DNA from: an uncultured Parachlamydiaceae bacterium
GTDB lineage: Bacteria; Chlamydiota; Chlamydiia; Chlamydiales; Parachlamydiaceae
DNA length: 64,000 nt
Direction of reading: 5' to 3'
NCBI GenBank assembly: GCA_963742415.1
Contig: CAVULX010000004.1
Coordinates: 960,001 to 1,024,000, forward strand
Shown: positions 10,190 to 12,481 of the stretch, in pieces
Layout of the letters: every line of letters begins with the position of its first letter
Numbering within the stretch: the stretch's first letter is position 1
Notes under the pieces: model-generated
Database searches by the model: none
What the model was told of the DNA's origin: nothing
Seen by the model: only the letters and a program-made list of their open reading frames with translations
Program-made: the position numbers and the translations under genes

Positions 10190-12481
10190 TTAAATGAATT
10201 TTTGAGAGCTGAAAAGAGAGCTAAGATAAGTGTTGTCTAAGACCGCTTTGCGCCGCTTGGCTTCCACAGTTCCGTTGACTTTCACATCAAAATTTAATAA
10301 ATCCCAACTGCATTTGCGGAGTTGGTCAAAATTTTCCAACGAGTGGTCGGCCTTGCCCCGTGTGAAATCAAGATCGATCAACCACAACGCTCGGGCTTCC
10401 AATGTACTATGGCAACGGAGCGTCAAGGAAATTCCCAAGGGGTCTTTTTTCATGCTTGAAAGGTAAAGCCTCTTATCAATTACAGTACGATTATCTACTA
10501 CCGTTTCCATCACCATTTGCACAACTGTCTTCAACCCTGCCCAAACATCTTTATTTTGAACCCACGAAACATCCTCAGCCACCGTAATTTCTCGCAGCGT
10601 AGCGATGCTTGGGCTTTGATTGACGTCCCGGTAAGTTTCATGGGGAATTTGATCTCCCCGCTCATGCAAATCTGAGGAAAAGAGCTCTGCTGCCCTTTCG
10701 TAATCCACGCCATGCTTGCCTTTAAGCGCCACCAAATAATCAGCCCCTTCCTCCTTGATTTTTCGGGAAATCTTAGAGCTGTCTTTATCTGAATCGATGG
10801 TTAAGATCGCATCAGACAAATCAAACACCTCAAGTGCTTGAAGCAAAGGAGGTTGATACCGTTTGTCTTGGAAATCATTTTTAAGCTCTGCCAGGACAAT
10901 CCCCCGGTCCGATTCCCATACACCCACATTTCGCAAAGCTGAAAGGGTATCGGAAGCTTTCTTTCCGATTGCATGTTGGATCAATAGATCAAAATAGTGG
11001 GGATTAAATCGTCGTAACAAAATGGTCAGAAGCCTATAAGATGGGAGGCCGTTCTTCAATCCTAGCCAGGCAGTAAAAAATTGCTCCCGTGCGGTCAGGT
11101 AAGCGATCATATCAGACGCTGTCCGTGCGTTGCAAATAACCGCGCATAACATCATTAAAACAACATCTCCTAGCCGATACCCGTCATCTTCCTTCAAATT
11201 GGCTGTTTTATTAGTTCCCGAGTCTTTCAATATCCCTTCACGCGAGAGAGGCATATCGGGCAAAATAGGGATCCTTACCACATGCTTATCATCTTGCCTT
11301 TGTGTAATCTGACTATTTTGATTGTCGTTGCGGTCTGCGTTGACTATGGCATCACGTCTCGGTTGCACATGCTTGTGCTGCACCTGTTGGATTTTATCCA
11401 AGGGCAGGTGCCCTTTGGAGGCTTTCAAAGGGTCTTGAGGCTGAGTCAAAGGATTCATTGGAGGGGTTGCCCCTGCCATTTGTTGCCTTGGAACAGCTTG
11501 TGCAGAATTGGAGGAAAGGTGGGAAACAGGCTGAGAGGGATCTTTTGAATTTTGTAACGGCTTGTCTGAAGAGGGAAGATTGACGACGAAGTTTTCCGGT
11601 TTCGGAATGATTCTTGTCGCAGTAAAAGGCAAGGCTCCGCCGTTGGGAAACTCGGATGGTTTAATACCCGATTCCTTCCCCTCTGCTTTGGATAAATGAG
11701 GGTTTCGCTCCCCTTTCGCCGGAGCATTTTTATGTTGGAACAATCCCTTCAATGATTTTTCAACCGGATCAATCTCTTGTGAACCATGGGGCTGTTGAAC
11801 CGTCTTGGCTTCCCCACGTGCGGCAGCTTGGGACCGGGAAGCTGGAGCTTTTTGAGCATTATCTTCGCTTGGGGACTTTTCCCCTTTGAAAAGAGGCGTT
11901 TCCTGTTTAAGCTGAGGAAATCGTAAGGAAATCGTTTGAATCAAAAAGTTAAATTTTTCAGGAACGCATCGATTCACAATTTCTTTAGCAAGCTGATCGA
12001 CCGCTCTTTTACCCCCTTCTTCCCCATTTTGATCGATTGCTCCCTCCTTCCCTTCCAGTCCCTCTTTTAATCCCACAGAAGAAGAGGAATTGTCACCATT
12101 ATCCCCTTTGTGTGAAACATGGGCATGGGAATGTGTTTGACCATGGGGAGTGGAATTTGATCCTTGGGAAGTTGAGGGGGGTGCAGCAGGGGTCCCATTT
12201 CGGTGATTATGCGGGGGAGCGATTGGAGTTGAATTTGATCTGTTATCATTAGCTAAAATGACTCTAACTTGGCTCGGCCTGACCTGTTCTTGAAAGCGCG
12301 TAGGATTAAAAATTTGCTGTATGGGTGTGAGTGCCCGATTTCCAATGTCGGTGACAAAATTGACTACGACCACGACTACGCGAGGAGTTACATGCACTTC
12401 GACTTCTCTAACGGGAGGGGGCCTCCCAACGCTATTAAACATGTAAACCCTTTTTTGAATATTTTCACTTTTATTATACAC
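10190..12481 (-). CDS. Low-complexity N-terminus fused to degenerate ISAs1 (H-repeat) transposase domain; start may be 12442
   Basis: C-terminal ~330 aa align by eye with ISAs1 transposases (LCAVIC, LKNGLPS, LTIDS, GADYLVALKG, WAGLK, RLYLSS, KRRKAVLDNTYL); N-terminal ~430 aa are S/P/Q/H/K-rich. Confidence 0.8.
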   Translation of the reverse strand: MYNKSENIQKRVYMFNSVGRPPPVREVEVHVTPRVVVVVVNFVTDIGNRALTPIQQIFNPTRFQEQVRPSQVRVILANDNRSNSTPIAPPHNHRNGTPAAPPSTSQGSNSTPHGQTHSHAHVSHKGDNGDNSSSSVGLKEGLEGKEGAIDQNGEEGGKRAVDQLAKEIVNRCVPEKFNFLIQTISLRFPQLKQETPLFKGEKSPSEDNAQKAPASRSQAAARGEAKTVQQPHGSQEIDPVEKSLKGLFQHKNAPAKGERNPHLSKAEGKESGIKPSEFPNGGALPFTATRIIPKPENFVVNLPSSDKPLQNSKDPSQPVSHLSSNSAQAVPRQQMAGATPPMNPLTQPQDPLKASKGHLPLDKIQQVQHKHVQPRRDAIVNADRNDNQNSQITQRQDDKHVVRIPILPDMPLSREGILKDSGTNKTANLKEDDGYRLGDVVLMMLCAVICNARTASDMIAYLTAREQFFTAWLGLKNGLPSYRLLTILLRRFNPHYFDLLIQHAIGKKASDTLSALRNVGVWESDRGIVLAELKNDFQDKRYQPPLLQALEVFDLSDAILTIDSDKDSSKISRKIKEEGADYLVALKGKHGVDYERAAELFSSDLHERGDQIPHETYRDVNQSPSIATLREITVAEDVSWVQNKDVWAGLKTVVQMVMETVVDNRTVIDKRLYLSSMKKDPLGISLTLRCHSTLEARALWLIDLDFTRGKADHSLENFDQLRKCSWDLLNFDVKVNGTVEAKRRKAVLDNTYLSSLFSSQKFI

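Follow-up and report, generated by a model that had tools for sequence, protein, structure and literature searches.

A domesticated ISAs1-type transposase behind a long N-terminal tail: an apparently undescribed protein family of the Parachlamydiaceae

Introduction

ISAs1 insertion sequences encode DDE transposases that are recognized by the NCBIfam profile NF033564 and by the Pfam domains PF13808 and PF01609. The locus studied here encodes a protein whose last ~330 residues are collinear with these enzymes, pass the profile cut-off and nest among chlamydial ISAs1 sequences. Unlike them, the protein lacks strand β1 with the first catalytic Asp, the DPR, HGR and HWxIE motifs and a match to PF01609. 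Its gene differs further in being a single copy without inverted repeats, in carrying a 415-residue tail, and in a predicted helix-to-strand switch.

Low copy number and a housekeeping-like character have been reported for another bacterial transposase gene, RAYT or TnpA-REP, in the available text of PMC5581495 and PMC8266576. However, RAYTs, as described there, are HuH enzymes related to IS200 that process REP sequences, whereas the fusion protein is a DDE derivative without the first catalytic Asp, and no linked repeats were seen. TldR is reportedly an inactivated, exapted TnpB. Such inactivated and exapted TnpB proteins resemble the fusion gene in being immobilized and in having lost or rearranged their catalytic site, a combination read as recruitment, but TnpB is an RNA-guided RuvC accessory nuclease and not a transposase, and the available text of PMC10691335 describes no disordered tail fused to it.

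In structure, our model comes closest to Tn5 transposase and to the Tn5 inhibitor Inh (PDB 1mm8, 1b7e), at weak Z values of 5.8–6.7 against 21.4 for an intact control. In contrast to Inh, the fusion protein keeps its N-terminal helical subdomain best. Inh is encoded by the element itself and lacks the N-terminal DNA-binding domain. In eukaryotes, domesticated dead DDE transposases such as PiggyMac-like proteins and CENP-B keep the fold as a scaffold or DNA binder; they belong to other superfamilies, carry point changes of catalytic residues and are not known to have lost the central strand.

Chlamydiae secrete nucleus-directed proteins, and the nucleomodulins NUE, SinC and CT460/Wcw_0377 offer a precedent for type III-secreted proteins of this kind; unlike the fusion protein, they contain SET, SWIB or other domains, and the word transposase is absent from the main text of both sources (PMC7819608, PMC7143554). 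The genomic features by which domesticated HuH and TnpB proteins are recognized in the available text of PMC5581495, PMC8266576 and PMC10691335 are also found in the fusion gene. The bacterial cases found in print, as far as the available text of these sources goes, are of the HuH or TnpB types; what we report is a classical DDE insertion-sequence transposase that has been domesticated across a family. A search of the full-text literature, covering the main texts of mostly non-subscription papers, returned no description of the fusion family. We regard it as a real and apparently undescribed family of domesticated DDE transposases, for which we infer a function below.

Methods

The window is the whole stretch of DNA analyzed, 64,000 nt on contig C4 of genome G000, the query genome. 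Residues of the fusion protein are counted from ATG 12442 (750 aa). The family set comprised 35 proteins of group A and five more divergent ones of group B; it includes genome-derived proteins and some near-duplicates. As controls, we used 117 motif-intact ISAs1 proteins of 340–430 aa and dropped seven others that had been retrieved but were shorter or longer. The matrix for ISAs1 ends was derived from 23 chlamydial ends, which score 12–25 against it. AlphaFold2 was run on the last 401 residues of the query with a 33-row alignment, giving one model; the control model, of the intact ISAs1 protein P0165, used 60 rows. Species trees were built from the AAA ATPase and the 627-aa protein, and from RpoB/C. 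For the composition score of N-termini, the training set consisted of 24 presumed effectors and, from G000, 40 conserved proteins (leave-one-out AUC 0.76–0.82). Excluded were two ankyrin hits that were doubtful, six proteins with membrane segments or signal peptides, and eight whose starts were uncertain.

Results and Discussion

The gene and its family

The sequence-only reading had proposed an unbroken frame at 10190–12481 with an ISAs1-like C-terminal part. The frame is present on the minus strand, with 763 aa from its GTG, and the last ~330 residues score 122.8 bits against NF033564, whose cut-off is 70. In Pfam, PF13808 matches residues 435–499 and the DDE domain PF01609 is unmatched, whereas an intact relative matches both. 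The family has been hidden so far because it still lies above the ISAs1 annotation cut-off; one homologue carries the NCBI name 'ISAs1 family transposase'. In G000 (84% complete), the fusion gene is the only ISAs1-like match. The features of the locus are collected in Table 1.

Table 1. Coordinates of the fusion gene, its parts and its neighbors in the window
Feature	Position	Strand	Remarks
cheW, cheA, cheB, response regulator-phosphatase cluster	4573..10087	−	context only; linkage not conserved
Fusion gene, 750 aa	10190..12442	−	763 aa with GTG 12481 as start; single copy in G000
C-terminal helices and inherited KRxK motif	10208..10342	−	predicted model and sequence comparison
Segment 685–693, predicted strand (helix in intact ISAs1)	10364..10390	−	W687, D690 invariant; D692 family-specific
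E682, former third catalytic Glu	10397..10399	−	E in 29/35, D in 2/35; adjoining Trp of HWxIE lost in 35/35
Four-stranded β insertion domain, retained	10457..10642	−	predicted models of query and control
D550, former second catalytic Asp	10793..10795	−	D in 22/35, E in 8/35 group-A proteins
Junction of deleted β1 strand (IAIDGK)	10934..10963	−	strand kept in 0/40 family members, 115/117 controls
ISAs1 N-terminal helical subdomain (PF13808)	10964..11185	−	lacks first ~17 profile positions and DPR; best conserved, net basic
Long disorder-type region with conserved islands	11186..12292	−	composition, alignment
Island: PR.D...R.P..PD.PL.RE motif	11225-11365	−	alignment
Island: KGE...PEE motif	11738-11860	−	alignment
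Island: helix motif	11918-12007	−	alignment
N-terminal head, residues 1–50	12293..12442	−	start rich in Pro and poor in Lys/Arg, with a hydrophobic run and an amphipathic stretch; putative type III signal
Promoter-like site TTGAAA-17-TATAAT, sigma-70-type	12473..12501	−	30 nt before ATG 12442
AAA_5 (MoxR-type) ATPase and 627-aa gene, divergent	12642..15380	+	shared neighbor of group-A loci

The promoter-like site (12501–12473) has 11/12 consensus matches, equalled in 1.3% of 300 shuffles. It overlaps the GTG at 12481, which points to ATG 12442 as the probable true start; the resulting 750-aa form is also the protein version on record. Weaker −10-like boxes lie upstream of most fusion orthologues and individually do not exceed shuffled sequence.

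A word search returned eight homologues of 499–794 aa. When a profile was run against 1.84 billion representatives, at least 23 further members (642–810 aa, one of 415 aa) appeared within the best 150 matches, where they rank above ordinary ~380-aa transposases. A single long-frame copy is found in 12 of 73 Parachlamydiaceae genomes (7 group A, 5 group B) and two copies in none; the gene was not found in the other 61, many of them near-complete. Across 401 genomes of the order, frames longer than 600 aa are confined to the Parachlamydiaceae among the 150 matches listed, besides which there are 87 weaker ones, and a phylum sample searched at a strict threshold agrees with this restriction. A metagenome scan yielded three ordinary ISAs1 genes and no fusion member.

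In a quick tree of 52 rows, groups A and B are united in one clade (SH-aLRT 99) that branches from within the intact ISAs1 of chlamydiae, and FastTree on 132 rows recovers the same clade. Group A alone has an SH-aLRT of 94 in the quick tree, and the union of B with A is less sure because the B branches are long. In the rough species trees, the carriers belong to lineages that branch early, as would be expected from an old gain followed by losses, although support is poor and frameshifted assemblies interfere. The protein diverges quickly: between G000 and G074 it is 45% identical, compared with 75–91% for neighboring genes.

Loss of the catalytic core

Several motif changes noticed in the initial reading are as it described them: DAMGCQ has become DSDKDS, HGR is gone, and HWxIEN...F.ED has become HSTLEA...FTRG. 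Its account of IDGK stands only in that the motif is absent. AIGKK is no decayed IDGK, since the whole β1 strand and its loop (~24 residues) have been deleted, and the candidate relic is thereby ruled out. Between two anchors, the preceding helix and β2, controls have a median distance of 36 residues and group-A proteins one of 12. IDGK, situated on β1 and containing the Asp that we take to be the first catalytic residue by analogy with DDE enzymes, is found in 0/40 family members against 115/117 intact controls; the full-text literature search found no paper dedicated to ISAs1 catalytic residues. The initial reading had missed both this loss of an entire catalytic strand, the first, and the refolding that the model predicts.

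Forty-three columns are at least 90% invariant in the controls; 11 are still conserved in group A and 32 no longer are. Group A has lost DPR, the His of HGR (0/35), the ED pair and the Trp of HWxIE, and HWx[IV]E occurs in 0/40 family members compared with 116/117 controls.

The former second Asp (D550) and third Glu (E682) are both still present in the query. It is conceivable that D550, E682, D690 and the new D692 make up a rearranged acidic site of a rebuilt nuclease or metal-binding enzyme. Position 550 is acidic in 30/35 group-A proteins and position 682 in 31/35, D690 is kept in 35/35, and D692 is found in 32/35 against 3/117 controls; catalytic-site rearrangements are also described for TnpB in the available text of PMC10691335. 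However, Pro, Ala, Asn, Ser or Tyr is tolerated at these positions in some members, neither D690 nor D692 is kept as Asp in group B, and the catalytic core is the most relaxed part of the protein. We consider such an enzyme quite improbable.

The best-conserved part is no longer the catalytic core but the N-terminal helical subdomain, and in group A this subdomain has become basic. Identity over the subdomain (residues 421–493) is 45% within group A (32 proteins) compared with 38% for 39 controls, while that of the former core is 34% compared with 54%. The net charge of the subdomain is +3.8 in group A and −2.7 in controls, and K463 and R470 are new, family-specific conserved basic residues within it. 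The domain as a whole is slightly acidic, with a median charge of −2 in the family against +1 in controls. The equivalent region of Tn5 transposase binds DNA. The putative DNA-binding role suggested by the initial reading draws indirect support from a subdomain that is conserved and newly basic, but group B, at +0.2 and with no basic patch, does not share the shift.

Predicted structure

The model of the query has a pLDDT of at least 90 for 265/401 residues. In it, β1 is absent, the Glu helix ends at residue 684 and residues 685–692 form a strand; the control model contains β1 and one continuous 24-residue helix over the equivalent segment. On these models, it is quite likely that the helix of the catalytic Glu has turned into a strand over its second half. 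The new strand may fill the empty β1 slot, in which case R513 and D692 would be neighbors and could pair. R513 is found in 33/35 group-A proteins against 10/117 controls, and D692 shows the enrichment given above. Changes at the two positions are too few for a covariation signal: the only row without a basic residue at 513 also lacks D692, and two rows have R513 without D692.

A structural comparison of the DDE site, proposed with the initial reading, was run on the models, in which the core is predicted to be rearranged. Tn5 transposase is the top match, with Z 5.8, rmsd 6.8 and 204 aligned residues for the query, and the alignment stops three residues after the Glu; the control reaches Z 21.4, rmsd 4.2 and 329 aligned residues. 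Foldseek with the query model gave no match at E 0.001 or better and a sequence search of the PDB gave none, neither of which is itself proof of a new fold. The shared deletion of the central strand, together with the predicted helix-to-strand switch, offers a natural and testable case of fold change with a well-modelled, ancestor-like control.

Immobility and selection

Intact chlamydial ISAs1 elements are bounded by 16-bp CAGGG inverted repeats, matching at 15–16 of 16 positions, at 21/24 loci. The absence of ISAs1 ends, claimed for the query alone, extends to the family: the matrix scan found no genuine end at any of 12 fusion loci. The best right-end score at the query locus is −1.7, and the single high score among the 12 loci (13.6, in G044) lies inside coding sequence. 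The fusion gene fails the tests of a working ISAs1 element, although it is descended from ISAs1 and passes the NF033564 cut-off.

Elsewhere in G000, two facing ISAs1-end-like sites lie ~220 nt apart (C4:355656 on the plus strand and 355877 on the minus strand), possibly a non-autonomous remnant. Genome G047 contains a multi-copy ISAs1 with a 522-codon open frame and eight full copies (e.g., C4:51191-52222, L044), and P0047, P0062 and P0075 are also ISAs1 proteins of ~495 aa. N-terminally extended ISAs1 may therefore exist among mobile elements.

The single-copy syntenic orthologues proposed as a check exist. Each of the 12 carriers has one copy, the fusion is kept, and six of the seven group-A genomes share the site beside the AAA ATPase gene. 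The purifying selection that had been postulated is borne out by dN/dS values of 0.14, 0.15 and 0.23 in three of nine genome pairs, dS being saturated in the other six. In the nine pairs, the domain is 32–63% identical while four-fold sites are at 0.19–0.42 identity; for the tail, six pairs allow a dN/dS estimate, which ranges over 0.14–0.51. Neither a dN/dS near 1 without fusion orthologues nor a multi-copy gene with ends was observed. The fusion gene is domesticated and kept intact under purifying selection.

It could be argued that the frame arose by chance read-through into a decaying insertion sequence, an idea to which the patchy distribution (12/73) and a group-B copy in G059 that is broken near its 3′ end lend themselves. 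This is refuted by the codon comparison, since frames are open in 11/12 carriers despite saturated synonymous sites, and the shared deletion and the family-specific conserved residues speak against it as well. The G059 copy (L068:8343-10220) has an early stop at 625 aa, after which a further match continues in another frame. In G000 (C4:459982-463663), G074, G064 and G059, rpoB is split into several frames, probably by assembly error, and the frameshifted rpoB of G059 and G000 points to the same cause for the broken fusion copy; caution is needed with any frameshift in these assemblies. We regard chance read-through as hardly conceivable.

The N-terminal tail and possible function

The tail had been called low-complexity. 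Its composition is indeed of the disorder type (P, E, S, Q and K make up 39%), but by entropy there are short low-complexity patches only, and conserved islands are present. The part of the tail that was modelled, residues 350–413, has a pLDDT mostly below 50. Among 424 candidates, no separate, shorter homologue of residues 130–420 was found. An Atlas search with residues 1–415 gave no match, and with the whole protein it gave ISAs1-type clusters only.

A secreted effector had been envisaged from the N-terminus. By the composition score, which is weak, 35/38 family members have effector-like N-termini, compared with 10/40 conserved G000 proteins and 20/114 intact transposases; however, the score rewards any Pro-rich tail, and the query ranks 237/1768. 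The 19-residue hydropathy peak within the first 60 residues is 1.42. The type III secretion genes of G000 include two for FHIPEP-type export-gate proteins and three for CesT chaperones. A predicted complex of a CesT chaperone dimer (presumably the Slc1 homologue) with residues 1–240 scored 0.53 against 0.44 for the control, which is evidence neither way. The KRxK motif, which resembles a nuclear localization signal and is present in the query, is inherited and no commoner than in intact transposases (21/35 group-A proteins, 58/117 controls), and was not counted as evidence.

We propose the following course of events. First, a chlamydial ISAs1 gene was joined behind a ~415-residue tail, its ends, DPR and β1 were lost, and purifying selection keeps the gene; of this step we are practically certain. 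Second, the helix of the catalytic Glu would have become a strand over its second half, as the model predicts. Third, the basic and best-conserved helical subdomain would bind nucleic acid or an acidic partner, with the rest of the domain as a scaffold. Fourth, and this is the weakest step, the Pro-rich head would act as a secretion signal and the conserved islands of the tail would recruit partners. The chain as a whole, leading to a domesticated, refolded protein that is secreted by the type III system and acts in the host cell as an effector, binding nucleic acid without cutting it, is tentative, and we give it slightly less than an even chance. That a DDE transposase became an injected host-chromatin-binding effector specifically through a fold switch, half of the catalytic helix replacing the deleted central RNase H strand, is possible but more doubtful. 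A secreted nucleic-acid-binding effector is nonetheless the likeliest of the functions considered, ahead of a regulator within the bacterial cell and then of an ISAs1 inhibitor. If the protein is secreted, it would mark a new source from which intracellular bacteria derive effectors that manipulate the host.

The regulator, or a nucleoid or scaffold protein whose tail serves as an internal interaction hub, is served equally well by the evidence for domestication. The basic, conserved helical subdomain, the retained R617, R658, R676 and R730, and the gene's own sigma-70-type promoter-like site would all suit such a role, and dead TnpB derivatives serve as in-cell regulators according to the available text of PMC10691335. 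The effector-like N-termini and the fast divergence relative to neighboring genes argue against it, and no conserved downstream target genes are found at the loci examined. A disordered tail of 415 residues would also be unusual for a bacterial transcription factor. A regulator therefore seems to us rather unlikely.

Alternatively, the protein may be a host-owned, dominant-negative inhibitor of ISAs1 that, like Tn5 Inh, pairs with the active transposase or occupies the element ends. By hand count, intact ISAs1 frames occur in 6/12 carriers compared with 6/61 other genomes (a Fisher test with 7/61 gave p = 0.005, but kin are not independent and the profile favors the donor lineage), and the C-terminal helices are kept in the model. 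Conversely, G000, G064 and G074, genomes in which no intact ISAs1 was found, keep the gene unbroken; DPR and conservation at most of the control-invariant columns are lost, the core is predicted to be rearranged, and the tail is left unexplained. We consider an inhibitor improbable, and continue to favor a secreted effector.

Genomic neighborhood

The fusion gene is divergent from the MoxR-type ATPase gene in G000, G074, G010 and G064; a few genes are inserted between the two in G063 and G044, and the locus of G045 ends at a contig end. A search upstream of the ATPase gene in 53 further genomes, where several stretches were ended by contig ends, revealed no hidden divergent orthologue; in 41 of the 53 stretches, this position holds another gene, which we take to be ttcA-like. 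The ATPase itself is highly conserved, being found in 60/73 family genomes, mostly at 79–91% identity, and its 627-aa partner has a weak DUF5682 match only.

The 102-nt gap to a cheW-like gene, noted initially, is real. The link to a Wsp operon built upon it does not hold: che genes are absent downstream at every orthologous locus examined, the two being adjacent in G000 only, and membership in a Wsp-like operon was rejected because this linkage is not conserved. In five carriers queried for cheB, the gene lies ~330 kb away in G010 and on other contigs in G063 and G064, and was found with this query neither in G074 (97% complete) nor in G044 (67%). The cluster in the window (1923–10087, minus strand) is a partial Wsp-like one with cheW, cheA-receiver, cheB, receiver-phosphatase and KdpD-like kinase genes. 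CheR is encoded at C4:374982 and chemoreceptors at C4:1004074 (window about 44074) and C1:8915; the Wsp-like pathway is thus scattered.

In both genomes of genus g55, the fusion gene is followed by one for a protein of 176–181 aa whose start resembles a signal peptide (L031:6278-6823, L063:11061-11591). Beyond the ATPase genes, the plus strand of the window contains a small two-gene pair at 15497–16109, presumably antitoxin-like and MazF/PemK-like, and at 16231–17289 a gene whose product combines a signal-peptide-like start with a domain of the eukaryote-type Vps62 family. F-box-like tandem arrays lie elsewhere in G000 (C4:468482-471988 and 635678-645593), where an iterated profile finds 16 in the genome.
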